From the UHGV virus genome UHGV-0102822: a DNA stretch of 18,997 nt; one strand, written 5' to 3'. The notes beneath the pieces were generated by a model that was not told where the DNA came from, searched no databases, and saw nothing but the letters and a program-made list of their open reading frames with translations. Below are positions 4,432-18,972 of the stretch, one piece after another (the stretch's first letter is position 1; every line of letters begins with the position of its first letter). Source of the DNA: a virus. A program made the position numbers and the translations under genes.

Positions 4432-5460
4432 ATGACAAATGATATTTTTGTGGCTAATCTCGTCCGTGTTTCTGTAAATGAAGAAGCAACGTCGGAGATT
4501 CCTAGCTACTTTGACCCAGGATATATTGAAACTGAAAATGTTGCTGCTTTTCCGGTAATAGGATTTTCAAATCAAGTTCAATCACTCGAAGATTATCGAG
4601 AAGATTTTGAAGTTAAATTATCAGGTGATCAAACAATTGATAACACTGTTTTAAGCATATTTGAATCTGATGATGAAGTTTCCGAATTGTTAGACAATGC
4701 GTTAATGAATAAGAAAAAACTTCGATTTAGAAATCTTTATGTTGTCGATTCAGAACATACAAGAGAAAGACAATCCGGTCTTTATCATATCTTTGATGCT
4801 TATGTTACGAAGAAAGAAACAAACGGGTCTGAGAGTTCCGCTGTAATTAACAACTATACTTTAAGTCCAGACGGTAAATTATTTTCAGGTTACGCTGAGT
4901 ATTCAACTCCGTTAAACGTTGGCGATTATGGTGTTGGTGCAGGAACAGAAGAAATCGAAGGTGTAAAAGATTTAGGTCTTTTGACTGGTAACAGATGGAT
5001 AACTGTTGATGGGGTTAACACTGATAATCCATATAACTCTGGCACGTCTGCTATGGCAATTCAGCATCCAAGTGGTCAAGGATGGGAACTGATTGGAGCA
5101 AGTATCGGTAATCCTAGCATACGTATTCGTAACAAGCAGATGAATCCCGACGGGACAATCAATGAATCGAATTGGGTTAAGGTCTATACAGAACTTGAAC
5201 GTCCTACAACAGAAGACATTGGAGCGCTTCCTATTACGGGAGGAACGTTACAAGGTTCACTGACGATTCAGGATTATTTGACTGTACGCAAAAAGATAAA
5301 CGCCCCGCTTGTTGAAATCGACAATCTAAATACTAAAGAAATTCAATCTGATTCGGTGAAAGTCAAAGGTCAAGAAGTTTATTCTCCTACGAATAAACCA
5401 ACTCCTGTTGATGTTAACGCAGTAGCTCAAGGTGAAACGTTAGACGCCGGAACATTCTAA
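4432..5460 (+). CDS. putative tail structural protein carrying a tail-fiber-type GGT-x-x-G-x-L motif in its C-terminal part
   Basis: 342 aa, with GTGAGGA SD before ATG 4432. The C-terminal region contains DIGALPITGGTLQGSLTIQDY, the motif class seen in phage tail fibers and also present in the 951-aa fiber downstream (SKAGDTMTGDLTV). Confidence 0.45.
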   Translation: MTNDIFVANLVRVSVNEEATSEIPSYFDPGYIETENVAAFPVIGFSNQVQSLEDYREDFEVKLSGDQTIDNTVLSIFESDDEVSELLDNALMNKKKLRFRNLYVVDSEHTRERQSGLYHIFDAYVTKKETNGSESSAVINNYTLSPDGKLFSGYAEYSTPLNVGDYGVGAGTEEIEGVKDLGLLTGNRWITVDGVNTDNPYNSGTSAMAIQHPSGQGWELIGASIGNPSIRIRNKQMNPDGTINESNWVKVYTELERPTTEDIGALPITGGTLQGSLTIQDYLTVRKKINAPLVEIDNLNTKEIQSDSVKVKGQEVYSPTNKPTPVDVNAVAQGETLDAGTF

Positions 5461-5512: not shown

Positions 5513-8368
5513 ATGGCTAATAACAAAGTCAAACACTATAGGACTGATGTCGCAGGACGTAAACCTGATGCTTCAAAAATGCTTGAAGGTGAAATTGCTA
5601 TTAACATGACCGATAAAAGCATTTTCACGAAACGTGGAACTGAAATCGTTAATATCGGTAATGGTGCTGATTCTGTCGTCGAAGGTGGACAGACTTTTAT
5701 CGGTGACGTTCAAGCAAATAAATTAAAATCTGACACTGATATTTCTCTGAAAAATTCCGAGAAAAGTTCTATCGTTTTTGAAGATGAACACGGTAAAGCA
5801 AAAGTCGAATTGAAATCTGAAAAGCAAACTGATTCCGAAGGCTCTTTGAAAGTTGTTGTTTCGAACGGTAAAAACGCTTCAACAGGTTATTCAACTTATG
5901 ATTTCGTTAATGGTCGTTTACGTTTACCAGTTGCACCAATTGAAGCTGATAACGCAACGCGTAAAGACTATGTTGATTCAGAGATTAAGAAAGTCTCCGA
6001 CGCAACAGGAACGAATCTGACAGCTTTAGAGAATAAAGTTAACGCTAACGACACGAAACAGACCGAAGCGAACACCGAGCTGGACAATCGTCTTAACGCT
6101 AAGATTGATTTAAACAATACGACTATTAACACGAAAGTTGACGCTAACAAAGCCGACGCAGATTCAAAGATTAAAGCTGTTAATGATCGTTTGACTGTTG
6201 ATAATCAGACTTTGACCGACATGATTAATACCAAGGTTTCAAAAGCTGGTGACACAATGACTGGCGACTTGACTGTTCCTAAATTGAATGCCGACGGTAT
6301 CAAAGCAAATTATATTAACTTGGGTCCTAATCCTAATAGTTTAGGTGCTAACAGTATTATGATGGGAGATTCCGATACAGGATTTAAATGGAGAGAAGAC
6401 GGTTGGTTAGACACTTATTCCAATAATGTTGTTGTATCAAGTGTTGCAGGATCTCAAAACTTTTTTAATCGTCAAGTTACGATTAGATATAGAAGCGATG
6501 GTGCAGGAAACGTTAACGGTCTGGCACCTGCTGGCACATCTTTGCTTAAAATCGATACAACGACCGATGGAAACGGAATCGGAGACGGATACACTTATTT
6601 CGGATTATCAAATGCCGGTAAATATCATAACTATCTGAGAGGAACCGGTGCAACGTTCATCGATTCTCATGACGGTGTGAGAATAAGTGGTCAGACTCAT
6701 ACTCTTGCGGGAGTTGTGACTTCTGGTAAATCAGTAGGAACTTATGATACTTATTCCATGGTCAACTGGACTCAAGACACACAAGCTTTCAACCGTCTGA
6801 GACATTTCAGAGCGTGTGGTGCGTCGACCTGGTGGCATGAACTTGTATGGGCACATCATGATAATCCAAAATATTCGGATTCATTAACTTGGTGGCAGGG
6901 TATCGGGGCTGATAACTGGATTGCATCATTGCACCAAAGCGGTAATTATAAGACAAACCGATTCGAAGCACACGGCAGAAGTGCCGCTTATAAGCTTTTC
7001 AGTGCGACAAGTGAAGCTGCTTATATTTCTGGTAACAACGATGGAAAAGAAAACTCATGGCTGTTAGGTAAAACAGATGCCGGAACAAACATCATGTTTC
7101 AGAATAATATGGTTACGGGTCAAAGTTCCGCCGTAGTTCTGAGACAGAACCATGTGCAGCTTAACGCTAATGGTTATAATACCCTGACAGTTCTTGATAA
7201 CAGAATTGAAATCGACGGTTCAAGATGGGCAGCAACAAACAGTCACGCTTGGTCAGATCAGTGGAATCAATTGCCTCCTGTTCTGCTTAATTTCGGAACA
7301 TCTTCAGGTGCAAGTGATTATTATCCTGGATTTGCATTGCAGCAAACGACTTCCCAGGCGGGATATCATACTCGTTTTGAAATGGGAATAATTCGAGCCG
7401 GTGCACAGTACGGAAAAGGTGTAATACGTGTTTCTGAACCGAACCATGCTGCGATGGCCGGAAAAAATCAGTCCATTTATGAATTTGATATAAACGGAAG
7501 ATTCGCATCACCGAATATTGTTGATACTCCTAAAGTTGAAACCCGACAGATAACAAGTTTCGGTGTTAATACTCTTAACGTGCTAGGCGGAAACTCAATT
7601 GCGTTTGGTGATGGTGACACCGGTATTCGTCAAAGAACTGATGGAAACTTAGAAATTCTGGCAAATAGCGTTCATGTTGCAACATTCGACCACGCGGGAA
7701 TTAATTCATTAACCACTATGCGCGTTTCTTCTCCAAACGATTCTCGTGGCGTATATGTTCATAATATCAGAACAGGCAGCGCAAACGCATTAATTGCTGG
7801 TCAAGTTGATGGCTGGGCTGATTGGGGAGCATGGCGTGAACGTCCTGCTGGAATGATCGTAGAAGCGGGTTCAACTGATAAATGCATTAACATTTGGAAA
7901 TCTGTTCAGTGGGGAACCGAATGGTCTGCTGGAATGGACATTTATAATCCAGCAGGCGGCGCTTATGAAGCCATGCTTCATGTTAGAGGTGCAAACTTTA
8001 CATTTAGAAGCGTTGATGGTGCTGCCCATGCTGTTTCTTGGGTTTCAACTTCCGATAAACGTCTGAAATCAAATCTTGAAAAAATCGAAAACGCAGTTGA
8101 TAAGGTTAATACGTTAACTGGTTACGTTTACGATAAGAAATCAGATTTGAAAGAAACTGAATATTCGTTCGTAACTCGCGAAGCAGGTATTATTGCTCAA
8201 GAACTGAAAGAAGTATTACCAGAAGCTGTTAGTTCTTTCGGCGAAGATGAAATTCTTGGTGTTAACTCTGCTGCTGTAAACGCGTTGCTTGTTAATGCTA
8301 TCAAGGAATTAAGTGCTGATTTGAAAGAAACAAAAGCGCGTCTTGATGCTTTAGAACTTGCTAAATAA
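5513..8368 (+). CDS. tail fiber protein with C-terminal intramolecular chaperone / autoproteolysis domain (peptidase S74-like)
   Basis: 951 aa. The shaft region has P2 gpH / T-even-fiber-like motifs (KAGDTMTGDL; MMGDSDTGFKWREDGW and AFGDGDTGIRQRTDGN repeats). The C-terminal ~105 aa (SDKRLKSNLEKIENAVDKVNTLTGYVYDKK...GIIAQELKEVLPEAV...ALLVNAIKEL...LKETKARLDALE) match the signature of the self-cleaving chaperone domain known from endosialidase and T5 pb1-type fibers. Confidence 0.8.
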   Translation: MANNKVKHYRTDVAGRKPDASKMLEGEIAINMTDKSIFTKRGTEIVNIGNGADSVVEGGQTFIGDVQANKLKSDTDISLKNSEKSSIVFEDEHGKAKVELKSEKQTDSEGSLKVVVSNGKNASTGYSTYDFVNGRLRLPVAPIEADNATRKDYVDSEIKKVSDATGTNLTALENKVNANDTKQTEANTELDNRLNAKIDLNNTTINTKVDANKADADSKIKAVNDRLTVDNQTLTDMINTKVSKAGDTMTGDLTVPKLNADGIKANYINLGPNPNSLGANSIMMGDSDTGFKWREDGWLDTYSNNVVVSSVAGSQNFFNRQVTIRYRSDGAGNVNGLAPAGTSLLKIDTTTDGNGIGDGYTYFGLSNAGKYHNYLRGTGATFIDSHDGVRISGQTHTLAGVVTSGKSVGTYDTYSMVNWTQDTQAFNRLRHFRACGASTWWHELVWAHHDNPKYSDSLTWWQGIGADNWIASLHQSGNYKTNRFEAHGRSAAYKLFSATSEAAYISGNNDGKENSWLLGKTDAGTNIMFQNNMVTGQSSAVVLRQNHVQLNANGYNTLTVLDNRIEIDGSRWAATNSHAWSDQWNQLPPVLLNFGTSSGASDYYPGFALQQTTSQAGYHTRFEMGIIRAGAQYGKGVIRVSEPNHAAMAGKNQSIYEFDINGRFASPNIVDTPKVETRQITSFGVNTLNVLGGNSIAFGDGDTGIRQRTDGNLEILANSVHVATFDHAGINSLTTMRVSSPNDSRGVYVHNIRTGSANALIAGQVDGWADWGAWRERPAGMIVEAGSTDKCINIWKSVQWGTEWSAGMDIYNPAGGAYEAMLHVRGANFTFRSVDGAAHAVSWVSTSDKRLKSNLEKIENAVDKVNTLTGYVYDKKSDLKETEYSFVTREAGIIAQELKEVLPEAVSSFGEDEILGVNSAAVNALLVNAIKELSADLKETKARLDALELAK

Positions 8369-8433: not shown

Positions 8434-8922
8434 ATGGCTGATAAAGCATATGATATTTTCGCTGGCTCTTACGTCAGTGTATTTTTCAACTCTGACGTAT
8501 TGAACAAAGATATCGACTCAGAGAAATTCGTAGAAGTTCCTGAAGTTGGCGCATTTCCTACGACTGGTATCGAACGTGAGGTAATCGTTGCTCCTAACTT
8601 TACTCACAAATACAGCCGTAAACTGGTTGGTCGTGGTTCTGTTCCTGATATCGATTTGACTGTTAACTATATTCCTGGGTCTATTCATGATCAGCTTTAT
8701 AAGCTTGCGGAAGATGGTAAACGTGGTCAGTTCAAAATCGTTTATTGGATGGATGCTTCTAAAGAAATCGGTGTTGCAAAAATGTATAACGGTTTCCTGT
8801 CAAGCGCTACTTATTCCGGTGGTGAATCAGAAGTTGCTGCACAGGCTATGACTCTGAGTGTTGATGGTGGTCCAATTGCCGAAGCTTTGGTTGATTTGAC
8901 TGCTCCAACTCCAGAAGGCTAA
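8434..8922 (+). CDS. putative tail tube or minor tail protein
   Basis: 162 aa, acidic, with a pattern loosely reminiscent of tail-tube-fold proteins (DIDLTVNYIPGS...KRGQFKIVYW...GGESEV). Flanked by a terminator on each side, suggesting an abundantly expressed structural gene. Assignment is weak. Confidence 0.35.
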   Translation: MADKAYDIFAGSYVSVFFNSDVLNKDIDSEKFVEVPEVGAFPTTGIEREVIVAPNFTHKYSRKLVGRGSVPDIDLTVNYIPGSIHDQLYKLAEDGKRGQFKIVYWMDASKEIGVAKMYNGFLSSATYSGGESEVAAQAMTLSVDGGPIAEALVDLTAPTPEG

Positions 8923-8943
8923 TCGTTTTATTGTTCAATCTTA

Positions 8944-8969
8944 AAAGACTCCTAACGGGGTCTTTTTTT
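8944..8969 (+). terminator. rho-independent terminator after the 162-aa gene
   Basis: AAAGACTCC-TAAC-GGGGTCTTT, a 9-bp stem with one G-U pair, followed by a run of seven T (three of them in the stem). Confidence 0.7.
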
Positions 8970-8973
8970 GGCT

Positions 8974-8983
8974 CTAAATAAAG
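8974..8983 (+). promoter_or_regulatory. CTAAATAAAG motif (candidate late promoter) upstream of the gpK-like gene
   Basis: Exact CTAAATAAAG immediately after the terminator, then AGAGG SD and ATG 9002. Confidence 0.4.
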
Positions 8984-9001
8984 TCAGAGGTGAATCTTAA
9001 A

Positions 9002-9418
9002 ATGTTTAAATTTCAAGCTGACTTATCAAAATTATTAAATCGTTATATCAACAAAGAACACAAATACGGTCAAAACGACTGTAATATCCTTGTCGCTGAA
9101 TATATCGATATGACTTGCGGAACAGATTACGCAAGCAAACTTATTTCCAAATATGACTCTGTTCAATCGGGTTTAAAACACTGCAAAGAACTTACAGGTT
9201 TTAATAACGTTTTAGAAGCTTGTGAAAAGCATTTCGAAAAATCAAACATTATCGAAACAGGGTCAATTGTCTTAATTAAAAAAACATACAGACGCCGAGT
9301 TTATTACGTTGCGTCGATTGTCTTTAACGACAAAGCAATTATTGAACACAACAACAAATACGCTTTGATAAACGTAAAAGATTTTGAATACGAATTAATT
9401 TTTAACAGGAGAAAATAA
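9002..9418 (+). CDS. NlpC/P60-type tail assembly protein (lambda gpK C-terminal domain-like)
   Basis: 138 aa from ATG 9002; the track's GTG 8990 overlaps the SD. Cys-His-His spacing typical of NlpC/P60 (QNDCNILVAEY ... IIEHNNKYALI). Sits directly upstream of the gpJ-like gene, as gpK does in lambda. Confidence 0.55.
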   Translation: MFKFQADLSKLLNRYINKEHKYGQNDCNILVAEYIDMTCGTDYASKLISKYDSVQSGLKHCKELTGFNNVLEACEKHFEKSNIIETGSIVLIKKTYRRRVYYVASIVFNDKAIIEHNNKYALINVKDFEYELIFNRRK

Positions 9419-12400
9419 TGGCTATTGTCGCAATTGGTGCAATCATCGCTGGTGCTTCTGCTGGTCTTGCTGCTTATGCCGCTGGGATGGCATTAGCTAT
9501 TTCAATCGGTATTGGTGTTGCTGTTGCTGCTGTTTCCGCTTTAATGTCAACAGCTATGCAACCAACTGTTCCTCGATTTAATACAAGTGATACCGCAACA
9601 ACATTAGGAACAACGTCTGATCCTTCAACTGTATTACCGATTATCTACGGTGAACAACGCACAGGAACAATTAACGTTTGGGATGCTGTAGGAAATGATA
9701 CGACTTATTTGGTGCAAATTTTTGCAATTGCCGAAGGTGAAGTTGATAGCTTTAAAAACCTTTATATCGATAACAAGCGTATTCTGAATGATGCCGTTTA
9801 TCGTGATGGAATTGTTTCAAGAGGTTCAATCGTTTCTCAATATCAAGACTATGTGCAAGTTGAATTCTCTGTTGGTAAAGAACAAGGTCATCATTTCAAA
9901 CTTGCTGAACAATACTTAGGAAATGACCCAAGTGGCTGGCCTGTTTCTGCTACAGGTAACGGTGTCGCTTCTTGCTGTATCGTAATGCAGAAACGAAATT
10001 CAGACTTACAAAACCAAGCTGATATCCTACAACCTAACAGTCAGGTCGCTGTTGATGTTAGAGGACGTTTGATTACTGACTTAAACACGGGACAAATCGT
10101 TCCATCTCGCAACGGTGCAAGTCAGATTGTCGATTATCTGACGAACGAACGATACGGATTAGGAGTTTCACTTGATAAAATTAACCTTGATAGTTTTAAA
10201 GCTGCTGCAAATTATGCTTTAAGCAATCAACTATTTTCCGATGGTGCAACAGACCCTAACGCAACGTTTAAAGAAAACTTAACTCAGCTTGCAGGTGCTT
10301 TTAACGGAATGATTTTCGAATCATTCGGACAAGTTTATTGCAAAATCGATGGTCCTGATGTTGTTTCATTTGATTTCGATGAAGAAAATATTTCTGCTGG
10401 TTCAGTTTCGTTGAATTCAGGTGGTTCAGAGGAATATTACAATACGCTGAACGTGAAATATCAAGATCCTGCAATCGATTATTCCGAGCAAGTTCTTCGT
10501 TATCCATCTGACGTGACGACCGACAAAACAATTCAATATGATAAACGTATTATCGCGAAAGATGTTAATTATCGTTTTGTGAAATCTAAAGACCAATTGG
10601 ACAAACTTGCTTCAATCGAACGTAACAAATCACTGTTAAAACAGATTATCAGCTTTAGTTCTCCTGATTCCTATACTATTCAAGTTTGGGATGTTATCAG
10701 AGTTAACTTTGATGAATTAAATTTGCAAGATTCGTTATGGCGCGTTACTAACGTTAGTCGTTCAATGAATAAGGGCGTTGCTGGTATCGTTAACATCACA
10801 GCTACTGAATATATTGAAGAAGTTTATACCGATTTAGACTATGCGAAAGATCCTAATAACAACGGTTCAAACGTACCAAACAAAGGATACTTGATTGCTC
10901 CTACGAATCTTAAAGTTTCAAGCGTTTCAGAAACAGCTTTAGGAAGAACTTTTAAAGTTTCATGGAATTCAGAGCAAGATTTTAACCGTTCAGGTTTTTA
11001 TATTCAATATGCAGTTGCAGGAACAAACCAATGGACTCAAGCAGGATTCACATCAGGAAATTCTTACTTGATTATGAACATGGACCCATTGCAGAAATAT
11101 GATATTCGTGTTTGTGCTTCTGGTGTTTTCTATACGTCTGAATGGGTTTATTCAATGAATGTTAACCCTGATGTCGTTTATAATCTGCCTAAAGTTCGTG
11201 GTCTAAGACTTGTTAACTCTGAGTTTAATAACAACGTTACGCAACAAACGCAATTTGAATTTGCATGGGATAATCAGAGTTCAGAGAAATTCGAAGTTGA
11301 CGGCGTTCAACAGACTTTCGAACAAGTATTTCAGTATTACGAAATCAAAATCACTGGACAAAGACCTGTTGTATACAGAACTAAAGATTTGAGCTTCATT
11401 TATGATTTACGAATGAACCAGCAAAACGGTATCAGTCGTGAAATTAAATTTGAAATCACTGCTGTTGGTTATTCAGGTTTAAGATCTGAACCTACTGAAT
11501 TAATCGTAAGAAATAATCAAGCTCCTGCAATAATCGGTTTTACTGCTTCGAATGGTCCTGGATTATTGATGTGTTCTTGGAACGATCCAATGAGTGTTGC
11601 ACCTGATTATTCTGGAACTGTTATTCAAGTTTCAAATAATCCTGAATTCACTGACATTAATCAAGTTCAGTTGAGTTCTAGCCAGTTCATTGAAAACTTC
11701 CCGTTAGTTGACGGTGAATATTATGTTCGAGCTGCATGGTATGACGTTTTCGGACAAGACCAATTAGTTTGGACTGAATCAGTTTATATCAACATGAAAT
11801 GGGATATTCCATGGACAGAAGATATGAAAGACCAGTTAAACGACTTGCTTGATTTAGACCAACGAGTTGATGGTGCTATCGAGGACGCTTTAGAACTCGC
11901 AAATGCTTATACCGATACTCAGATAACATCAACTAAGCAGGAAGTAACAACCGAGATTGATCAGAAGATCAGCACGTCTAATACAACGTTGCATACTCAG
12001 ATAACGAATGAAACGCAAGGCGCTATCAATCAGGCTATTACGATTCAAACGGCTGATTTTGACGGTAAGTTAAACTCTGCTATAACCGAAGTTGAGAAAA
12101 CCCAAGCGGATGATCGTGCTGCAACAGCTTCACAAATCAGCCAATTAAAAGCTGAAACTACGGATATGGTCGCGACTGTTTCTACCGAAGCAAAAGCAAG
12201 CGTTGACGATTTAGCAGGAACTGTTAACAGTAAATGGGCTGTTTCTACAAACGCCGATGGTGTCGTAGCTGGTATTAGTATGTTGGCATCTAAGGACGCT
12301 GCGGGAAATAAAGCCTCAAGCATTATTTTTAACGCTGATAAGATTGCTATAACAAATAATAACACTGCTCCTAATGCTGTTCCACCGTTCATGGTCGCAG

Positions 12401-13098
12401 ATGATAGAGTTTATTTACAAAGCGCGATGATTCGCAATGCTTCGATCGGTAATGCTCAAATTGCTAATGCTGCAATTGATAATGCCAAAATTGCTAATGC
12501 TGCAATTAATAACGCGCAGATTCAAGACGGTGCTATTACAACAGCGAAAATTGGTAATGCTCAAATCGGTTCAGCACAAATTGCCTGGGAAATATCCTCT
12601 GATAACTGGGTTCCTTCCGGTGGTACTCAAGGATGGACAATTAGAAAAGATGGTTGGGCTTCATTCCAAAACGTTACAGTTAAAGGAAATATTCAAGCTG
12701 ATTCTGGTTATTTCTCAGGAGAAATCAGAGGTGGTTCTGGTTATTTCACAGGGACTGTTTACGCTGACAGAATCGAAGGTGACGTTATCAAAATGGGATT
12801 TGTCGATCCGTGGGGATCTGTTCATATTCCTGCTGTTGGTTGGAGAAGAATGATTGCTATTCCTAACGTTGCAATCGCCGGAAGAACTTATTCTGGTGGT
12901 ACTGGTTGGGGTGGTGGCAAAGCGTGGTTAAGACTCTCAAACGGCCAAGAAGTTGTTTACGTTCAATCTCAATCTCTAAACGGTTCAAACGGTGGTGTCG
13001 CATACATCGAAGCGGGACAAGCTGTTGATTTAACTTATACGGTCGAATTAAACCGAGCAGAAGCCTCAAGGGCAGTTTATTTTATCAGTAAAGTTTGA
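9418..13098 (+). CDS. central tail fiber / tip attachment protein (lambda gpJ-like) with a fused hydrophobic Gly/Ala-rich N-terminus
   Basis: 1226 aa. After a ~45-aa hydrophobic stretch comes a gpJ-type N-terminal domain (VLPIIYGEQRTGTINVWDAVGN...LVQIFAIAEGEVDSF), then fibronectin-III-like repeats (APTNLKVSSVSETALGRTFKVSWN...), a coiled region, a 5-residue-period repeat tract and a C-terminal domain. The start ATG overlaps the gpK-like stop (TAATG). Confidence 0.75.
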   Translation: MAIVAIGAIIAGASAGLAAYAAGMALAISIGIGVAVAAVSALMSTAMQPTVPRFNTSDTATTLGTTSDPSTVLPIIYGEQRTGTINVWDAVGNDTTYLVQIFAIAEGEVDSFKNLYIDNKRILNDAVYRDGIVSRGSIVSQYQDYVQVEFSVGKEQGHHFKLAEQYLGNDPSGWPVSATGNGVASCCIVMQKRNSDLQNQADILQPNSQVAVDVRGRLITDLNTGQIVPSRNGASQIVDYLTNERYGLGVSLDKINLDSFKAAANYALSNQLFSDGATDPNATFKENLTQLAGAFNGMIFESFGQVYCKIDGPDVVSFDFDEENISAGSVSLNSGGSEEYYNTLNVKYQDPAIDYSEQVLRYPSDVTTDKTIQYDKRIIAKDVNYRFVKSKDQLDKLASIERNKSLLKQIISFSSPDSYTIQVWDVIRVNFDELNLQDSLWRVTNVSRSMNKGVAGIVNITATEYIEEVYTDLDYAKDPNNNGSNVPNKGYLIAPTNLKVSSVSETALGRTFKVSWNSEQDFNRSGFYIQYAVAGTNQWTQAGFTSGNSYLIMNMDPLQKYDIRVCASGVFYTSEWVYSMNVNPDVVYNLPKVRGLRLVNSEFNNNVTQQTQFEFAWDNQSSEKFEVDGVQQTFEQVFQYYEIKITGQRPVVYRTKDLSFIYDLRMNQQNGISREIKFEITAVGYSGLRSEPTELIVRNNQAPAIIGFTASNGPGLLMCSWNDPMSVAPDYSGTVIQVSNNPEFTDINQVQLSSSQFIENFPLVDGEYYVRAAWYDVFGQDQLVWTESVYINMKWDIPWTEDMKDQLNDLLDLDQRVDGAIEDALELANAYTDTQITSTKQEVTTEIDQKISTSNTTLHTQITNETQGAINQAITIQTADFDGKLNSAITEVEKTQADDRAATASQISQLKAETTDMVATVSTEAKASVDDLAGTVNSKWAVSTNADGVVAGISMLASKDAAGNKASSIIFNADKIAITNNNTAPNAVPPFMVADDRVYLQSAMIRNASIGNAQIANAAIDNAKIANAAINNAQIQDGAITTAKIGNAQIGSAQIAWEISSDNWVPSGGTQGWTIRKDGWASFQNVTVKGNIQADSGYFSGEIRGGSGYFTGTVYADRIEGDVIKMGFVDPWGSVHIPAVGWRRMIAIPNVAIAGRTYSGGTGWGGGKAWLRLSNGQEVVYVQSQSLNGSNGGVAYIEAGQAVDLTYTVELNRAEASRAVYFISKV
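12430..12585 (+). repeat. tandem 15-bp / 5-residue periodic repeat tract inside the gpJ-like gene
   Basis: About nine consecutive pentapeptide units: IGNAQ IANAA IDNAK IANAA INNAQ IQDGA ITTAK IGNAQ IGSAQ. The underlying DNA repeats AATGCTCAAATTGCT / AATGCTGCAATTGAT. Confidence 0.7.
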
Positions 13099-13122
13099 TT
13101 TCTTTCCCCCAAATCCGTTTTT

Positions 13123-13132
13123 CTAAATAAGA
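13123..13132 (+). promoter_or_regulatory. CTAAATAAGA motif (candidate late promoter) upstream of the small-gene cluster
   Basis: Lies 28 nt upstream of ATG 13160; AAAGGAGAAAG SD in between. Confidence 0.35.
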
Positions 13133-13159
13133 CATGGAGGTCTTAAAAGGAGAAAGAAA

Positions 13160-13456
13160 ATGGGTGTTGAAGCCATCATTTCTTTCGCGGGACTGCTATG
13201 CGCTGGCTTTGGATGGATTTGGTCTCAAAAGAACGCAATGGAAGCCGACGCTTTAAAAATCGAACAGAGACTATCTGAAATCGAGAAAAGCGTTGCTCTT
13301 AATAGTGCGACCGATTCAAACGCAAATACTGAATTAACCAACGTTCGTGATTCGTTTAAGGAGTTTAAAGGTGATATGAAAAGTATAGACAATCGAATTA
13401 GAGAAATCGAAATTCGATTAGCGGTGATAGACAGTGAAACGAAAAGAAATAAATAA
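13160..13456 (+). CDS. small membrane-anchored coiled-coil protein (N-terminal TM helix plus helical domain)
   Basis: 98 aa. N-terminal hydrophobic segment AIISFAGLLCAGFGWIW, followed by heptad-like charged helical sequence (ALKIEQRLSEIEKS ... IDNRIREIEIRLAVID). The architecture resembles an i-spanin or other signal-anchored periplasmic protein, but function is unassigned. Confidence 0.5.
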   Translation: MGVEAIISFAGLLCAGFGWIWSQKNAMEADALKIEQRLSEIEKSVALNSATDSNANTELTNVRDSFKEFKGDMKSIDNRIREIEIRLAVIDSETKRNK

Positions 13457-13889
13457 TTACAAGAAAACCCTTTTTGATAAACAAAATAAAAGATGTGCTT
13501 TAACTGGGATAGAAATTACCGATGTTAATAAAGCCCATTTAGACCATGACCACGCTCTTGATGGTTCTCAAGCTGGACGATGCCGAGGATTATTACTCGC
13601 ACAGGCAAACGTCCTTGAGGGCAGATTAAAACATCAATTCATGTATTCAGGTTTAGCGAAGCACATCGAATATATTGATTTTTTAAAAAGATTGGTAACT
13701 TATCTCGAAAAAGATAATTCTAAAAATCCTATTCATCCTCAACTTGTAACAGACCTATCAAAGCGCTTTTCGAAAATGACGTTAAAGCAAATGAAAGAGA
13801 CTTTATTAGCAGAGGACATAAATCCAGTTGGTGATAAAAAATCTCTCATTAACTTGTACAAACAAAATTTAAAGGTGAAGTATGATTGA
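13434..13889 (+). CDS. recombination endonuclease VII homolog (T4 gp49-like, His-Me/HNH-type junction resolvase)
   Basis: 151 aa from GTG 13434, overlapping the upstream ORF by 23 nt. Clear similarity to T4 endonuclease VII as I recall it: HLDHDH, AG-x-x-RGLL, N...LEG..KH.F, SGL, and LVTYLEKDNSKNPIHPQLV versus T4 LLTYLKSDYTQNNIHPNFV. Confidence 0.8.
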   Translation: MKRKEINNYKKTLFDKQNKRCALTGIEITDVNKAHLDHDHALDGSQAGRCRGLLLAQANVLEGRLKHQFMYSGLAKHIEYIDFLKRLVTYLEKDNSKNPIHPQLVTDLSKRFSKMTLKQMKETLLAEDINPVGDKKSLINLYKQNLKVKYD

Positions 13890-14094
13890 AAAAATGAAAG
13901 CTGCATTCAAGAAACTTCCAGCAATGACAGGGGACTTTAAAAAGAAATTCATTTACGCGATGATTGCAATGGCTGTTTATAATTACATCGTTGTTCCGTG
14001 TGCATTGAGTTTCTTCGGAATAGTTCTTCCTATCGTTCCTCTTGATGAAGCTATGAAATATATCTTTGCAATTGTTTCATTTGGGAGTATGTAA
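13882..14094 (+). CDS. small hydrophobic membrane protein (holin-like size, possible dual start)
   Basis: 70 aa. N-terminus MIEKMK has two in-frame ATGs (13882 and 13894) separated by a Lys-containing tripeptide. A ~30-residue hydrophobic core (FIYAMIAMAVYNYIVVPCALSFFGIVLPIV) and a short hydrophobic C-terminus. Start overlaps the endo VII stop; AAAGGTGA SD. Confidence 0.45.
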   Translation: MIEKMKAAFKKLPAMTGDFKKKFIYAMIAMAVYNYIVVPCALSFFGIVLPIVPLDEAMKYIFAIVSFGSM

Positions 14095-14633
14095 TGGCGA
14101 AACTTGGTGGAGTTAAAAAAGACTTAGACAAATGGCGAATAAAAGAATCTGATCAGTTCTCTAAAAGAGTAACTAAAGCGTCTAAACTCGCTTCTGTTGA
14201 GTTACAACGAAAGATTAATCGACGTGTTGAAGGACCTGTGAATTTCACCAAGAACGCCGTTGGGTTCAGATTTAAGATTGATAAAGAAGGAACAACTAAC
14301 AGAATCTTTATCAAAGACGTTCAGGCGAATTATCTTTCACACTTGATAGATGATAACAGTCCGATTAACAAATATGTTCCAACAGGGGTAAGAGGTTCGA
14401 CTAACCAGTTCGGTAACATTCCAGGATTAAAAACTCGTAGAAACCTAGAGGCAGTCAAACAAAAGAAAGATGGTATTAACAGAACGATTCTGATTAAGAC
14501 AAATGTTAAAAAACAGAACAAAAGAGTTATTGCTATTTTCAAACGTCATCAAACTCGTAAGAAATCTATTGGTTCTTGGACTGATATTGGTAATGACATC
14601 ATAAAAACGGTTCGTCGTGTTGCTACTAAATAA
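14094..14633 (+). CDS. hypothetical highly basic protein
   Basis: 179 aa, Lys/Arg-rich throughout. ATG overlaps the upstream stop (TAATG); GGGAG SD. No recognisable catalytic motif. Confidence 0.5.
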   Translation: MAKLGGVKKDLDKWRIKESDQFSKRVTKASKLASVELQRKINRRVEGPVNFTKNAVGFRFKIDKEGTTNRIFIKDVQANYLSHLIDDNSPINKYVPTGVRGSTNQFGNIPGLKTRRNLEAVKQKKDGINRTILIKTNVKKQNKRVIAIFKRHQTRKKSIGSWTDIGNDIIKTVRRVATK

Positions 14634-14636
14634 AAG
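14626..14636 (+). promoter_or_regulatory. CTAAATAAAAG motif (candidate late promoter) plus AAAAGGAGA Shine-Dalgarno
   Basis: Part of CTAAATAAAAGAAAAGGAGACAAAATG, 24/27 identical to the cassette at 3707-3733. Overlaps the stop codon of the preceding gene. Confidence 0.45.
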
Positions 14637-14649
14637 AAAAGGAGACAAA

Positions 14650-14970
14650 ATGAACTTAAATGATTTTGAAACATATCGTGTTGACGAACTCGATTCTATT
14701 TTTATCAAAGAGCACAATCCAGAGTCGATGACTATTCCTTATAGCTTTGAACTGGTGAAAGAAACTCGTATAAAAAGGAATCTTCAAAACGACCAAAACG
14801 TTTTTATTGTTAGCACTCAGAAAAAGAAACCTCGTTATCATTTCAAGAATAATGAAATCGTAGAAATCAATGGTCCTTTCTTTGAACAAAATGCTGTTTG
14901 TATTTTTCAGCAAGAATATATTCATAAAGGATTCAGAATGATTGGATATTTCTTCCAATTCATCGAGTAA
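14650..14970 (+). CDS. hypothetical protein
   Basis: 106 aa from ATG 14650; the track's 14617 start is a GTG inside the promoter/SD cassette. Followed by a strong terminator. Confidence 0.5.
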   Translation: MNLNDFETYRVDELDSIFIKEHNPESMTIPYSFELVKETRIKRNLQNDQNVFIVSTQKKKPRYHFKNNEIVEINGPFFEQNAVCIFQQEYIHKGFRMIGYFFQFIE

Positions 14971-14973
14971 TCA

Positions 14974-15005
14974 AAAGGAGTTATCTTCGTGATAGCTCCT
15001 TTTTC
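14974..15005 (+). terminator. rho-independent terminator
   Basis: AAAGGAGTTATC-TTCGT-GATAGCTCCTTT, a 12-bp stem with one G-U pair, followed by a T-run. Confidence 0.65.
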
Positions 15006-15007
15006 GG

Positions 15008-15018
15008 CATAAATAAAG
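15008..15018 (+). promoter_or_regulatory. CATAAATAAAG motif (candidate late promoter) upstream of the chaperone / tape measure operon
   Basis: Variant of the recurring motif, immediately after the terminator and 31 nt before ATG 15050. Confidence 0.35.
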
Positions 15019-15049
15019 TAAACATTTAAATTAACTATAGGATTAAGAA

Positions 15050-15346
15050 ATGAAATTCGAAGAAATGATCGCCGCTCTCGGAGCAAAACGAGAAGTTGTA
15101 GAAATCAAAGGTTTTAAATTTTATGTTCGCGCAATGACCGTTGAAGAATTTGGTAAATTCTTTTTTATGGAAGACCAGACCGATAATATGATTCTGAAAT
15201 GCATTGAGAACGAAGACGGATCCCCTGTTTTTGAAAATATCGAACAAGTCAAACAACTTTATACCACCGTTCGCGCTCAACTTTCTGCTGCTGTTTCTGC
15301 TGCTTCTGTTATGAAAGAAGAAACTCACGCTGTGGAAAAGAATTAA
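15050..15346 (+). CDS. tail assembly chaperone (lambda gpG-like) by position and frame relationship
   Basis: 98-aa acidic ORF directly upstream of the tape measure gene. The downstream ORF is open in the -1 frame across its 3' end (from 15235). Confidence 0.5.
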   Translation: MKFEEMIAALGAKREVVEIKGFKFYVRAMTVEEFGKFFFMEDQTDNMILKCIENEDGSPVFENIEQVKQLYTTVRAQLSAAVSAASVMKEETHAVEKN

Positions 15347-15381
15347 GGCAGAATCCTTATAAAATATTCAAATTCAGAACC

Positions 15382-15729
15382 ATGTTGCGTAGAGGTTTTA
15401 CCGAACGTGAAATTCTGGATATGAGTATTAAGGATTTCTATGAACTGTGGATATATGAAACTTTCATTGAACCTCAAGGTCCTGCTGTAAATGACTTACA
15501 TCAAGCGCATATAGCATTTTCTGTTTTTGCTAATAATCCAAATATTACAAAAGAAGGTTCGAAGAAATTAAAACTGAAAGATTTCATGTTCATCAAGGAT
15601 AAAGTTTTTAAATCTCCTGAAGAACTGGAAGAAGAACAGAAAAAAGCCGCAGAAGCCAACAGAAAGAAAATGGAATCTATGTTCGACCCGAAACTTCTTG
15701 CGAAAGCAAAAGCTAAAAATAGGAAATAA
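15382..15729 (+). CDS. tail assembly chaperone extension (gpT-like part), probably expressed as a G-T fusion by -1 frameshifting
   Basis: The reading frame is open from 15235, in the -1 frame relative to 15050-15346. There is no Shine-Dalgarno before ATG 15382. The product has a basic C-terminus and the gene ends 2 nt before the tape measure start. Coordinates are as given in the ORF track; the true product probably starts at 15050 and shifts frame near 15334-15340. Confidence 0.4.
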   Translation: MLRRGFTEREILDMSIKDFYELWIYETFIEPQGPAVNDLHQAHIAFSVFANNPNITKEGSKKLKLKDFMFIKDKVFKSPEELEEEQKKAAEANRKKMESMFDPKLLAKAKAKNRK

Positions 15730-15731
15730 TA

Positions 15732-18077
15732 ATGGCGAATTCTCGTTATGATGTTGAGATTCGCGGAGATAATAAAGGACTGTCTACTGCTGTAAAAGAC
15801 TCTATGGACGAACTGAATAAACTTGATTCAGCCGCTCAGGGTCTTTTTAGTAATTTCACAGGTCCACTAAATGGTCTCAGCGATGGTCTCAGCACGATTC
15901 AAAGTATGTCCCCTGCGTTACGCGCATTGGGTGCAGCGGGGTTAGTTGCAGGTGCTGGTTTTGCTGCAATTAATAAAGCTGCTGAAACTGTTAACGTATT
16001 AAATCAGGTTAACACAACAACTGGCGTTTCTATTGAAATGCTTCAACAGTTGCAATCAACGTTCAAAGCTACCGGAATGGACGTTGAGAAATTCGGTGAT
16101 TTAAACAAAGACGCAATGGATAAACTCGGTGATTCTTTGAGAGCTGGCGGTGGTGGTATTGCCGACGACTTAGAAGAATGGGGTTTAAAACTTGAAGATT
16201 ATGCAAAATATGCTGGTGATGCCGAAGGTGGTATTAAAGCATTAATCGACACGTTCTATCAATTAAGAGCCGCTGGTAAATCATCTGCTGAAATTACTAA
16301 CGCAATGGAATCAATGGCGTCTGATGGTTCTCATTTGATTTCAACATTACAGAATTTTTCTAATACCCAAGACGCATTAAACGCAATTCAAGGTCAAACA
16401 GTTTCAATTACTCAAGACGTTGCCGACGAATTCAAAGAATATGAAAGAAACATGAATTCTTTGAAGAAAGCAACTAATGAATTCACGGTCGAAGCTGCTA
16501 GTCCATTAGTTCGTGAATTTAACAATCTTTATGAGTGGATGGATGGTATTGATTGGAGTGAAACGTCTTTTGCGAAATGGCTAAGAGAGAATAACAAAAA
16601 GGGTATAACTCCTTCTGGTATGTCCTCTGGTCAAGTGCAGAATATCGGAAAGTCTGTTGAAGCAATCGAAATTGAAAAGCGTCAGGCGTTTATTGCAGAA
16701 AATGCCAAGTTGCTTAAAAAACAAGTTAATCAGCTAGTTCGTTTAGCTGAACAAGAAACGATGGCAAATAAGGCTCGCCAGAAAGTCTTAGAAGAAAAAG
16801 CGAAGAAAGAAAAAGACGCTGCTGATAAAGCTGAACGTGAAAGAAAATCTGCTGCTGATAAAGCCGAAAGGGAACGTAAAGCTGCAATGGCTAAAGCCAA
16901 AGCTGATTATGACAAAATGATGGCTGATCGTGCTCAGGCAGTTGAATCTCTGAAACAGTTAGACGTTGCGGTTATTGCTCAAGAAGGACGTTCATATGCT
17001 TCTCAGATTAATCAGACTCAGCAAGCACTAACAAAGCTTCAAGAACTAAGAGACAAAGGGATAATCTCACAGGAGCAATTCCTAGAACGTCGTAATTCTC
17101 TATTGATTAACTCGTCAAAAGAATTCTCCGACAGTCTTAAGGCTAATCCTGCTGACATTGGCATTATCACTCAGTCGATGAATCAAATGTTCGATATTCA
17201 AAAGCAAGAACTGGATATTAAACGTCAACAGAACTTGATTTCAGAACAGCAATACAACGAACAGTTAGAGAATCTCCAAATTGCACATCAAGAGAAGATG
17301 AAAGCAATTAAAGAGATTGATGCTAATCAGGTGAATATGCAGAACTTGAATTCAATTGGTTTCGCAACTGATGAAGAAAGAATGGCATTAGAGCAAGAAG
17401 CATTAAATCAACAGTTCGAAAGGTTCAGAGAACAGAATCAGAAAATGTACGAATCTGGACTTTTGTCGCATGAACAATTTTTAGAGCAAAAAAGACGACT
17501 AGACAAGGCTTATTCTGTTCAGTCTGAAAATATTGCTATGATGGAAATTCAAACGAAAATGGGAATGTATAACGGTTTTGCTCAAGGCATGGCTGGTGTT
17601 ATTTCCGGTATTTCGGGTGAAAACTCTAAAGCCGCTCAAGCTGCGTTTGCAGTAGCTAAAGGAACAGCTATCGCAAATGGTATGTTAAACGCATATCAAT
17701 CTGCAACTAAAGCAATGGCAACTTATCCTGGTCCTTTGGGATACGCATTAGCCGCATCAAGTTATGCGCAAGTTTTAGGACAAGTTATGTCCATGAAATC
17801 TGTGAATATGACTGGTATGGCTCACGATGGCATTTCTGAAATTCCAAGAGAAGGAACATGGCTGCTTGATGGTGGTGAAAGAGTCGTTGATCAGAGAACT
17901 AACGGAGATTTGAAAGACTTCTTGAATAATCAAAGCGAGTCTAAGACTCAGCCTATTGATGCTCGTGTAATCGTACAAGGAAACGTGACTGATCAGCGTT
18001 GGTTTGCTGAACAACTCAAGAAGCAAGAAAAGATTATCACATCAATTGTTCAATCAGGAAACAGACGCAAAATGTAA
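15732..18077 (+). CDS. tail tape measure protein
   Basis: 781 aa. Long predicted helical, charged coiled-coil central region with an internal tandem repeat (AADKAERERK x2), and a Gly/Ala-rich hydrophobic segment near the C-terminus (AQAAFAVAKGTAIANGMLNAYQSATKAMATYPGPLGYALAASSYAQVLG). Preceded by the chaperone pair. Confidence 0.8.
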   Translation: MANSRYDVEIRGDNKGLSTAVKDSMDELNKLDSAAQGLFSNFTGPLNGLSDGLSTIQSMSPALRALGAAGLVAGAGFAAINKAAETVNVLNQVNTTTGVSIEMLQQLQSTFKATGMDVEKFGDLNKDAMDKLGDSLRAGGGGIADDLEEWGLKLEDYAKYAGDAEGGIKALIDTFYQLRAAGKSSAEITNAMESMASDGSHLISTLQNFSNTQDALNAIQGQTVSITQDVADEFKEYERNMNSLKKATNEFTVEAASPLVREFNNLYEWMDGIDWSETSFAKWLRENNKKGITPSGMSSGQVQNIGKSVEAIEIEKRQAFIAENAKLLKKQVNQLVRLAEQETMANKARQKVLEEKAKKEKDAADKAERERKSAADKAERERKAAMAKAKADYDKMMADRAQAVESLKQLDVAVIAQEGRSYASQINQTQQALTKLQELRDKGIISQEQFLERRNSLLINSSKEFSDSLKANPADIGIITQSMNQMFDIQKQELDIKRQQNLISEQQYNEQLENLQIAHQEKMKAIKEIDANQVNMQNLNSIGFATDEERMALEQEALNQQFERFREQNQKMYESGLLSHEQFLEQKRRLDKAYSVQSENIAMMEIQTKMGMYNGFAQGMAGVISGISGENSKAAQAAFAVAKGTAIANGMLNAYQSATKAMATYPGPLGYALAASSYAQVLGQVMSMKSVNMTGMAHDGISEIPREGTWLLDGGERVVDQRTNGDLKDFLNNQSESKTQPIDARVIVQGNVTDQRWFAEQLKKQEKIITSIVQSGNRRKM
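16818..16883 (+). repeat. imperfect 33-bp tandem duplication inside the tape measure gene
   Basis: GCTGCTGATAAAGCTGAACGTGAAAGAAAATCT followed by GCTGCTGATAAAGCCGAAAGGGAACGTAAAGCT, encoding AADKAERERKS / AADKAERERKA. The Arg codons are swapped between synonymous forms. Confidence 0.7.
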
Positions 18078-18147: not shown

Positions 18148-18504
18148 CTAAAGCACAGCCTGAAAACTTTGCCACTCAGGTGCATGCATAAGTACCGCGC
18201 TTTGTTCATTTCTATTCCAAATAGGAATCGCTTTCCCTATATAGAAAAAATGTGATGTTGCATCATTACTTTTCTTTTCACTACTTTTTCCTGCTTTTGT
18301 ATATACGACAACAAGATCGCCAGCGCGAACAGGTTTATCCGGAAACCAAAATGTTTCGTAAATACCAGTGTTTACCGACTCATTCTCAAATCCCGTTTGT
18401 AGCAGTATAAACTCTCCAATATTGCATGAACTGTCAACTCGAATGACAATTCGTTCCTTATCTAAGTTTCCAGGTTCGCGAATTGCTGTAATATTAACTT
18501 TCAT
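18148..18504 (-). CDS. hypothetical small soluble protein, second gene of the minus-strand cassette
   Basis: 118 aa. Its ATG overlaps the stop of the upstream membrane-protein gene by 4 bp, suggesting translational coupling. No recognisable motif. Confidence 0.55.
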   Translation of the reverse strand: MKVNITAIREPGNLDKERIVIRVDSSCNIGEFILLQTGFENESVNTGIYETFWFPDKPVRAGDLVVVYTKAGKSSEKKSNDATSHFFYIGKAIPIWNRNEQSAVLMHAPEWQSFQAVL

Positions 18505-18947
18505 GGCTTGACCACCTTTGCAGCTATCCCCCCGACAGTGAGCACACTACCAAAAGCTAACGCGAGCACAGCGGCAGTCGGCTGAGTTGACCAGTTTGAA
18601 GTGGCATATCCAAAGGCAGAGCCTGAAATTAGAAAACATGTCACATGCATTATTTCCAAAGCAATTTTTGTTTTGAATTTTTCTTCTAATACTCCTACAA
18701 GTTTATCGGATGTATGAAACTTATCGCGAATCACACGCAAATCATTGCATTCACCATCTAATCTTTCAATCTCATCAAGCAACATTCGTTGTACCGCAGC
18801 AGAGCTAAGCTCCTCATCAGTTAGCTCTCTGCGAAGATTTGAGAATGATTTGCGTCCAGAATTCCCCTTGGGAACAGCTGTTGGTATCCCCACACTTACA
18901 GGCTCTTCTGGTTCCGTATCAGGTTGATGCCTATTCCCAAAAACCAC
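18501..18947 (-). CDS. hypothetical membrane protein (cytoplasmic helical N-domain plus two C-terminal TM helices), first gene of the minus-strand cassette
   Basis: Probable GTG start at 18947, 6 nt after a perfect AAGGAG; the track's TTG 18971 lies upstream of that SD. C-terminal hydrophobic helices IALEIMHVTCFLISGSAFGYA and TAAVLALAFGSVLTVGGIAAKVV. Uses GC-ending codons (ccg, gcg, gcc, cag, ctc, ggg) that are unusual for the phage late genes. Confidence 0.55.
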   Translation of the reverse strand: MVFGNRHQPDTEPEEPVSVGIPTAVPKGNSGRKSFSNLRRELTDEELSSAAVQRMLLDEIERLDGECNDLRVIRDKFHTSDKLVGVLEEKFKTKIALEIMHVTCFLISGSAFGYATSNWSTQPTAAVLALAFGSVLTVGGIAAKVVKP

Positions 18948-18972
18948 GAAATGCTCCTTTCGTATATTCAAA

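Follow-up and report, generated by a model that had tools for sequence, protein, structure and literature searches.

A gpJ-like tail-tip protein of a siphovirus-like prophage probably carries a built-in gpI-type hydrophobic module

The gpJ-like open reading frame at positions 9418–13098 (+) of virus genome UHGV-0102822, analysed here as a window of 18,997 nucleotides, probably encodes a Megatron-type tail-tip protein (baseplate hub plus central fibre) of a siphovirus-like prophage, with a built-in gpI-type module of hydrophobic helices, plug-like linker and strand that would plug the lumen, dock the tape measure protein and, as a proposal, insert into the outer membrane. The first ~95 residues appear to be a built-in version of a module that, in phage lambda, forms the C-terminal half of the separate protein gpI. 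This module would consist of two hydrophobic helices (residues 1–47), a polar plug-like linker (48–71) and a β-strand, VLPIIYGEQRTG (72–88), leading to the hub domains. The sequence evidence shows a single module to underlie both the iris/penetration domain of Megatron and the hydrophobic helices of lambda gpI.

Start codon and composition of the N-terminal segment

The gpJ-like ORF (1226 aa) initiates at ATG 9418, and translation of 9418–9558 yields MAIVAIGAIIAGASAGLAAYAAGMALAISIGIGVAVAAVSALMSTAM, 47 residues, as quoted in the initial annotation. That annotation had described a Gly/Ala-rich hydrophobic start of 45 residues at 9418–9560; translation, composition and the Kyte–Doolittle profile confirm that the feature is real and the sequence correct, while its length is 47 residues and its last full codon ends at 9558. 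The segment comprises 17 Ala, 7 Ile, 6 Gly, 4 Val, 4 Met, 4 Ser and 3 Leu, with no D, E, K, R or H; Ala accounts for 36% of it versus 8% of the remaining protein. When the whole 1226 aa were scanned, all Kyte–Doolittle 19-residue windows with a mean ≥1.6 began within residues 1–30, and residues 1–47 are the sole strongly hydrophobic stretch of the protein (19-residue mean up to 2.32). The charge-free run extends to 52 residues, the longest among the window's 19 proteins. DNA repetition within the segment is limited to a weak 12-nt repeat (2.2 copies, 9448–9474), and a tandem-repeat artefact was therefore rejected as its origin.

A Shine–Dalgarno sequence, AGGAG (9407–9411, +; read from the sequence), lies 6 nt 5′ of ATG 9418 in a context identical to that of the Citrobacter homologue, and the TAA of the upstream DUF6950 gene (9416–9418) overlaps the ATG (TAATG); E. 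coli homologues in RefSeq are annotated with the same overlapping start. In-frame ATGs at codons 24, 43 and 47 would allow the real start to lie downstream, at Met24, Met43 or Met47, making the hydrophobic stretch an annotation artefact. However, the strong Shine–Dalgarno and the stop/start overlap are found only at ATG 9418, and no Shine–Dalgarno-like sequence precedes any of the three internal methionines. Compared with the Citrobacter homologue, codons 1–47 include 24 identical, 17 synonymous-only and 6 amino-acid-changing positions, similar to codons 48–100 (24/20/9), so that the synonymous-to-replacement ratio of the segment equals that of the codons that follow. The segment is also kept from residue 1 in relatives of 45–77% identity and in the majority of distant relatives; all seven database homologues (7/7) and phage DCP80 have the same segment, beginning at residue 1. 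A downstream start, rejected on the ribosome-binding site and codon-substitution evidence, is thus extremely improbable. The hydrophobic segment is translated from ATG 9418 and conserved under purifying selection.

Being N-terminal and hydrophobic, the segment might alternatively be read as a cleaved Sec-type signal peptide, or as a signal anchor directing the protein to the inner membrane of the producing cell; a cleaved signal sequence had also been raised in the initial annotation. Typical signal peptides have a hydrophobic core of ~7–15 residues; the run of ~47 residues here is too long, and the start (MAIVAIG...) lacks a positively charged n-region, with no K or R occurring before residue 53. 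Segment length and n-region led us to reject this reading. Further arguments against it are that phage tails generally assemble in the cytoplasm, that the homologous N-terminal helix of Megatron is resolved in mature particles (residues 7–16), and that lambda gpI H1 and H2 are present in virions; we give it almost no weight.

Homology to lambda gpI

A likeness of the segment to the hydrophobic ends of gpI-type proteins had been noted initially, and it was borne out. In BLASTP, the C-terminal half of lambda gpI matched the segment together with the ~45 next residues (E = 3e-5); hhalign aligned residues 46–93 with gpI 156–209 (probability 93.4%, E = 2.5e-7), and a second hhalign comparison with gpI reached a probability of 95.7% (E = 8.8e-9). 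PDB profile searches retrieved gpI at E = 2e-4 and 2.6e-5 with a span of gpI 110–212 that includes H1 and H2, the latter value being obtained with a 38-sequence N-terminal family profile against lambda gpI 110–211. Part of the profile scores over residues 1–47 may be due to shared Gly/Ala-rich composition; the composition-independent signal in the profile comparisons sits in residues ~46–95. On the strength of these alignments, residues ~1–95 are shown to be homologous to gpI ~110–212, covering H1, H2, the plug and the strand LPVLYGEMRVG. For tape measure proteins, another resemblance put forward initially, no link with the segment emerged.

The N-terminal domain of gpI (PF06805), which gpI homologues do have, gave no match in residues 1–150 even at E ≤ 10, nor in any ORF of the window. 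A check of relatives for a separate gpI-like gene, recommended in the initial annotation, found none between the DUF6950 and gpJ-like genes in the window or in six related loci; the loci include DCP80, Vibrio phage 2.058.O, Citrobacter and E. coli prophages, and the related locus L006. The gpI–gpJ fusion suggested at the outset is upheld in part: the C-terminal half of gpI appears to be built in, but its N-terminal domain PF06805 is absent, and the change may have been either a fusion or a fission.

Organization of the gpJ-like protein

Residues 1–47 (9418–9558, +) were delimited as a charge-free Gly/Ala/Ile/Val segment by Kyte–Doolittle hydropathy, composition, selection and the family profile. 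They probably form two helices, at about 2–22 and 24–46, and by homology are the counterpart of lambda gpI helices H1/H2 and of the Megatron iris/penetration domain. Invariant positions in the alignment of this segment are mostly Gly and Ala. AlphaFold2 placed helices at 7–13 and 27–46 with low confidence; the models (residues 1–460 from 8 sequences, pLDDT 46.5; residues 1–134 from 38 sequences, pLDDT 55.7) were too poor for a fold search.

Residues 48–71 (9559–9630, +) make up a polar Thr/Ser/Pro-rich linker (QPTVPRFNTSDTATTLGTTSDPST) that aligns with the gpI plug region (gpI 156–187). The conserved strand at residues 72–88 (9631–9681, +), VLPIIYGEQRTGTINVW, matches gpI LPVLYGEMRVGSRVV, T5 pb3 FIPVVYGVQKIPGIPIF (from residue 263) and RcGTA Megatron GRLWGRMRVAGQVIW, with P74, Y77 and G78 invariant or nearly so in the 38-sequence alignment. 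Neither Pfam (E up to 10) nor NCBIfam had a match in the first 150 residues.

The rest of the protein (9682–13098, +) contains the hub domains, an FN3-like region, and the C-terminal tail-tip fibre and receptor-binding part, identified through phrog_31, PF13550, PF09327 and T5 pb3. The match to phrog_31 (central tail fiber J) has an E of 2.5e-68, PF13550 scores 24.3 bits (cut-off 23), and PF09327, the C-terminal tail-tip fibre domain, covers residues 926–1024 (E = 2e-23); the fn3 match falls below the fn3 cut-off. In a PDB profile search the hub region matched T5 pb3 (E = 1.7e-11), and the C-terminal part of gpJ in 8iyk_J and 8xcj_Z is matched as well.

Gene neighbourhood

The DUF6950 gene (8990–9418, +; 142 aa; PF22262, E = 9.9e-13; phrog_2134) lies directly upstream of the gpJ-like gene, is translationally coupled to it, and occupies the position of gpK in lambda and of g14 in RcGTA. 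Its comparison with lambda gpK was not significant (E = 1.9, with only the G-x-x-DC motif aligned); a PDB search found no relative of DUF6950, and a literature search found no mention of it. The DUF6950–gpJ pairing recurs in DCP80, Vibrio phage 2.058.O and the related loci L005, L006, L007 and L008. The gene order in DCP80 and L006 is tape measure, distal tail protein, hub (PF09931), DUF6950 and gpJ-like, mirroring RcGTA g12 to g15. The window keeps the DUF6950–gpJ pair alone of this order, with the tape measure gene downstream (15732–18077, +; 781 aa; phrog_13674, E = 9.1e-62), whose product shares 33% identity with its DCP80 counterpart. The window has no homologues of the distal tail and hub genes, which in E. 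coli PSS-15 are located elsewhere in the prophage. By analogy with lambda gpH and gpI (PMC10721106, PMC12617516), the hydrophobic and plug module would be expected to provide, within the tail tip, the docking site for the tape measure C-terminus.

Occurrence of the hydrophobic start in the family

The initial premise that gpJ proteins normally lack such a start is true for lambda itself but fails for the family. We sampled 148 full-length representatives of 3516 related protein clusters. A hydrophobic segment stands ahead of the conserved (I/V)P(V/I)(V/I)YG strand in 117 of the 148, with two helices in 54 and one helix in 63; as most relatives begin likewise, the hydrophobic start is ordinary for the family. 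In this sample (n = 148) the module, in a one- or two-helix version, is usually part of the gpJ-like protein itself. When gpJ-like proteins are annotated, an N-terminal hydrophobic stretch should be interpreted as the gpI/Megatron module and not as a signal peptide or a misplaced start. The P0150 lineage in L006 lacks both the segment and a separate gpI gene. Relatives of this sort imply that the module is not indispensable, and lineages without it offer natural controls for its role.

Proposed role of the helices

Helices H1 and H2 of lambda gpI are predicted to be transmembrane and have been proposed to enter the outer membrane, with the plug domain at gpI 159–175; H1, H2 and the plug are no longer visible in the open state (PMC11101478). 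The gpI tripod holds up the gpH C-terminus (PMC10721106, PMC12617516). By analogy, we infer that the helices of the gpJ-like protein serve as plug and dock and may insert into the outer membrane. Judging from the solved homologues, the helices of three copies would reside inside the tail-tip lumen of the virion, closing the channel and supporting the tape measure C-terminus; once the receptor is bound, the hub domains would swing open and release the helices towards the cell. The released helices might then penetrate the host's outer membrane and contribute to forming or anchoring a pore through which the tape measure protein and DNA leave. This last step is a proposal only, as membrane insertion is for every homologue, gpI and Megatron included, and the T5 authors argue that it cannot be general for siphophages.

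The helices could instead act only inside the particle, plugging the lumen and docking the tape-measure C-terminus, to be expelled on triggering without ever spanning a membrane. The closed lambda and RcGTA structures are compatible with such a role, their homologous helices lying in the lumen and touching the tape measure or closing the channel; membrane insertion has so far never been seen, its generality is doubted by the T5 authors, and certain relatives do without the segment. However, a 47-residue charge-free stretch with a Kyte–Doolittle mean of up to 2.3 exceeds the needs of a soluble coiled-coil plug, and in the open lambda–LamB complex the helices exit the tip and point at the membrane (PMC11101478). 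We consider a role confined to the particle unlikely, and favour a plug and dock whose helices may subsequently insert into the outer membrane.

A broader reading is possible, and we offer it tentatively. Lambda gpI, the GTA/roseophage Megatron and the large enterobacterial/marine gpJ-like family might share one ancient unit, for which fusion would be the usual condition while the free-standing gpI of lambda would derive from a split; upon triggering, the two-helix version from three subunits might assemble into a six-helix outer-membrane pore or anchor. If true, the six-helix pore would be the outer-membrane route of the tape measure protein and DNA in many siphophages. The present finding adds no new mechanism for the crossing of the outer membrane by non-contractile tails.

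Comparison with known systems

Given its N-terminal homology to gpI and Megatron, together with the lack of a separate gpI gene and of the gpI N-terminal domain, the gpJ-like protein is best described, on sequence grounds, as a Megatron-type tail-tip protein with a built-in gpI-like module. The 38-sequence family profile matched residues 4–142 of RcGTA Megatron (6tba_8A, the sequence being taken from the PDB) at E = 8.3e-6. Compared directly, the RcGTA Megatron N-terminus gave no significant match, either by BLASTP (E = 4) or with an 8-sequence profile (hhalign probability 3.5%), and it is the broader family profile that carries the Megatron link. Like the protein described here, Megatron of RcGTA (g15) and of roseophage R4C (PDB 6TEH/6TBA, 8GTC) is a hub/fibre protein that starts with a ~45-residue Gly/Ala-rich hydrophobic segment, followed by a linker, a G-x-x-R-V-x-G strand and an (A/C)EGEI motif. 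Its iris/penetration domain, at residues 1–46 and 1–45 (PMC7296036, PMC10276861), is described as two helices and is comparable to window-encoded residues 1–47. A literature search for a stated equivalence of gpI and the iris found nothing specific; RcGTA genes 13-14-15 have been described as paralleling lambda L-K-I-J (PMC10721106). The systems also differ. As only PF13550, fn3 and PF09327 were matched, the large peripheral domain of Megatron has no counterpart in the gpJ-like protein; the gene upstream is DUF6950, with no recognisable NlpC/P60 peptidase, and the hub and distal-tail genes are not adjacent.

Among solved structures, T5 pb3 (PDB 7ZHJ, 7ZQB) is the one most closely related to the hub part, and its residues 262–314, where the strand and AEGEID motif align, match the N-terminal family profile at E = 1.3e-9. 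In pb3 the alignable strand begins only at about residue 262, after a long N-terminal region without counterpart here; pb3 lacks N-terminal hydrophobic helices, and the tube is shut by an internal plug domain that, according to the T5 authors, refolds into β-hairpin legs anchoring in the membrane.

Lambda gpI (PDB 8IYK, 8XCG, 9E7M) resembles residues 1–88 in the order of its parts: a pair of hydrophobic helices, then a polar plug, then the strand LPVLYGEMRVGS. Unlike the gpJ-like protein, gpI forms a polypeptide of its own (223 aa) and has PF06805 as an additional N-terminal domain; in lambda the chain ends after the strands and gpJ restarts with MGKGSSKG.

Gene content and order of the tail module

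The window carries a phage structural module on the plus strand. It opens with a lambda-family portal gene (50-1615) and a single 645-aa ORF (1669-3606) in which a prohead protease is fused to the major capsid protein, with Peptidase_S78 at residues 65-156, Phage_capsid at residues 401-632 and a phrog_617 match over the whole length. Two fibre genes (4432-5460 and 5513-8368), a major-tail-like gene (8434-8922), a DUF6950 gene (8990-9418) and the gpJ-like ORF of 1226 aa (9418-13098) follow. Further downstream lie genes for a 98-aa small membrane protein (13160-13456; N-terminal membrane helix plus coiled coil), a T4-type endonuclease VII (13434-13889) and a 70-aa small membrane protein matching phrog_2024 (13882-14094), whose strongly hydrophobic stretches may form one or two membrane helices; the endonuclease gene is found within the tail module, between the two membrane-protein genes. 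Two tail-chaperone-like genes (15050-15729) and the tape measure gene (15732-18077) come next. Beyond it, on the minus strand (18148-18971), are ORFs for two proteins of 118 and 156 aa, neither with a Pfam or PHROG match; the 156-aa product has a charge-free C-terminal stretch of 42 residues, and in E. coli 2017.06.05CC homologous ORFs are located between the tape measure gene and host ldtB.

The tail gene order (window 8434-18077; L007, an E. coli locus of the same prophage family, 3-940) is scrambled relative to Escherichia phage DCP80 (L001, 4317-13543). DCP80 carries an uninterrupted series running from major tail through chaperones, tape measure, distal tail protein and hub to DUF6950 and gpJ. 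In the window, DUF6950 and gpJ come immediately after the major-tail gene, with ~2 kb separating gpJ from the downstream chaperones and tape measure. The window has no homologue of the distal-tail gene or of the hub gene; E. coli PSS-15 carries both on the opposite strand, in a position ~11 kb upstream of terminase. DUF6950 always immediately precedes the gpJ-like gene, the slot of lambda gpK and of g14 in the Rhodobacter capsulatus gene transfer agent (RcGTA), and its conserved G-x-NDC-N motif aligns with the G-V-TDC motif of gpK. Its similarity to gpK is not significant, and neither a PDB relative nor a mention in the literature was found. The DCP80 record (PQ671644.1) has the classification Straboviridae, Tevenvirinae, Gaprivervirus, and motA is among its genes; despite that classification, it encodes a siphovirus-type tail tip with tape measure, distal tail protein, PF09931 hub, DUF6950 and gpJ-like protein, which puts the taxonomic assignment or the composition of the genome in question.

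A translated hydrophobic segment at the gpJ-like N-terminus

Residues 1-47 of the gpJ-like ORF are exactly the peptide quoted in the initial annotation and contain 36% Ala and no charged residue. Only here does the 19-residue Kyte-Doolittle mean reach 1.6 or more (maximum 2.32), and at 52 residues its charge-free run is unmatched in length among the window's 19 proteins. An AGGAG lies 6 nt before the ATG, which overlaps the DUF6950 stop, and internal Met codons lack a comparable ribosome-binding or overlap context; the start at 9418 is well supported, and the E. coli prophages carry the same overlapping start in their RefSeq annotation. Of codons 1-47, 24 are identical to those of the Citrobacter homologue, 17 differ only synonymously and 6 change the amino acid. 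Because this pattern matches that of the following 53 codons, the segment is translated and under purifying selection. The ribosome-binding site, the stop/start overlap and the codon substitutions reject a wrongly assigned start, and a signal peptide was rejected on the 47-residue length and the missing positively charged n-region. The annotated hydrophobic opening is thus confirmed by translation, hydrophobicity, start context and selection. AlphaFold2 placed helices at residues 7-13 and 27-46 with low confidence.

Close homologues formed only 7 clusters (46-77% identity) in a 5.8-billion-protein collection, all from Enterobacterales and all opening at residue 1 with the same segment, whose invariant positions are mostly Gly and Ala. 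The sole phage record with a long match, DCP80 (45% identity), begins MAVVAIGVIVAAASAG...

The window's prophage family is rare: among 5426 complete E. coli genomes, 7 carry related DNA, as a chromosomal prophage beside ldtB-ybiR-mntR, and the family is also present in Citrobacter portucalensis; the insertion site adjoins ldtB-ybiR-mntR-mntS (loci of the family: L005, L007 and L008). The element's right edge is at or close to the tape measure gene. Several copies are probably defective, since the Citrobacter gpJ-like gene (L005, 10001-13690) is split into 720-aa and 424-aa ORFs and an IS3 element disrupts the protease-capsid gene in some E. coli copies.

Distribution of the hydrophobic start

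A profile of residues 1-460 retrieved 3516 clusters at 50% identity (E<=1e-3), and a fixed Kyte-Doolittle rule, scoring the segment ahead of the (I/V)P(V/I)(V/I)YG strand, was applied to the best 150 of these, 148 of them full-length. The two-helix type of the window protein, with a hydrophobic span of >32 residues, accounted for 54 of the 148 representatives; 63 had a single helix of ~20-25 residues, the form seen in Vibrio phage 2.058.O. A hydrophobic start is therefore the norm in this gpJ-like branch, and its description as unusual for gpJ-like proteins was wrong, as the N-terminus is non-hydrophobic or weakly so in just 31/148. P0150, a 3055-aa gpJ-like protein (L006, 4237-15168), lacks a hydrophobic N-terminus and starts straight at its IPVCYGE strand, which makes it a naturally occurring deletion of the module. 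In its locus the genes for tape measure, distal tail protein, hub, DUF6950 and gpJ follow one another, with no separate gpI-like gene and no room for one; the module can evidently be lost.

Homology to lambda gpI and Megatron

Residues 1-88 share their element order with lambda gpI (...GGVFQIVLGAAAIAGSFFTAGATLAAWGAAIGAGGMTGILFSLGASMVLGGVAQMLAPKARTPRIQTTDNGKQNTYFSSLDNMVAQGNVLPVLYGEMRVGSRVV...), a Gly/Ala-rich hydrophobic stretch leading through a polar linker to LPxxYGExRxG. BLASTP matched residues 1-150 to gpI at E 3e-5. With hhalign, an 8-sequence family alignment paired residues 46-93 with gpI 156-209 of a 13-sequence gpI alignment (93.4% probability, E 2.5e-7), and a 38-sequence N-terminal alignment reached 95.7% and E 8.8e-9. 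In profile searches of the PDB, gpI chains aligned over residues 110-212 (E 2e-4 and 2.6e-5). The proposed gpI-gpJ link is largely right, whether the change was a fusion or a fission: these searches place a gpI-like module within the gpJ-like protein, but only as the C-terminal half of gpI, the N-terminal domain PF06805 of lambda gpI being absent from the window. The segment is translated, conserved, hydrophobic and homologous to both gpI and Megatron, the gpJ-like hub/fibre protein of RcGTA and roseophage R4C. The 38-sequence profile matched RcGTA Megatron residues 4-142 (E 8.3e-6) and T5 pb3 residues 262-314 (E 1.3e-9); the Megatron link depends on this family profile, because direct comparison with the Megatron N-terminus was not significant.

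In the closed lambda tail gpI is resolved from residue 101 onwards, and after LamB binding only from residue 167, with outer-membrane insertion proposed for its helices H1 and H2 (PMC11101478). In Megatron, the name iris/penetration domain is given to residues 1-46 (RcGTA) or 1-45 (R4C); the channel is shut by helix 1 from three subunits, and an outer-membrane pore made by the N-termini has been proposed (PMC7296036, PMC10276861). By homology, the gpJ-like N-terminal helices would lie in the tail-tip lumen, serve as plug and tape-measure dock, and be freed upon hub opening; their subsequent insertion into the outer membrane is a proposal, and its main rival is a purely internal plug/dock role without membrane insertion.

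RcGTA genes 13-14-15 parallel lambda L-K-I-J (PMC10721106). Judged from sequence, the window protein is the Megatron arrangement, with a gpI-like module built into a gpJ-like protein. The added value is modest: gpI is connected to the Megatron iris domain at the level of sequence, and one-helix, two-helix and absent N-terminal forms are surveyed.
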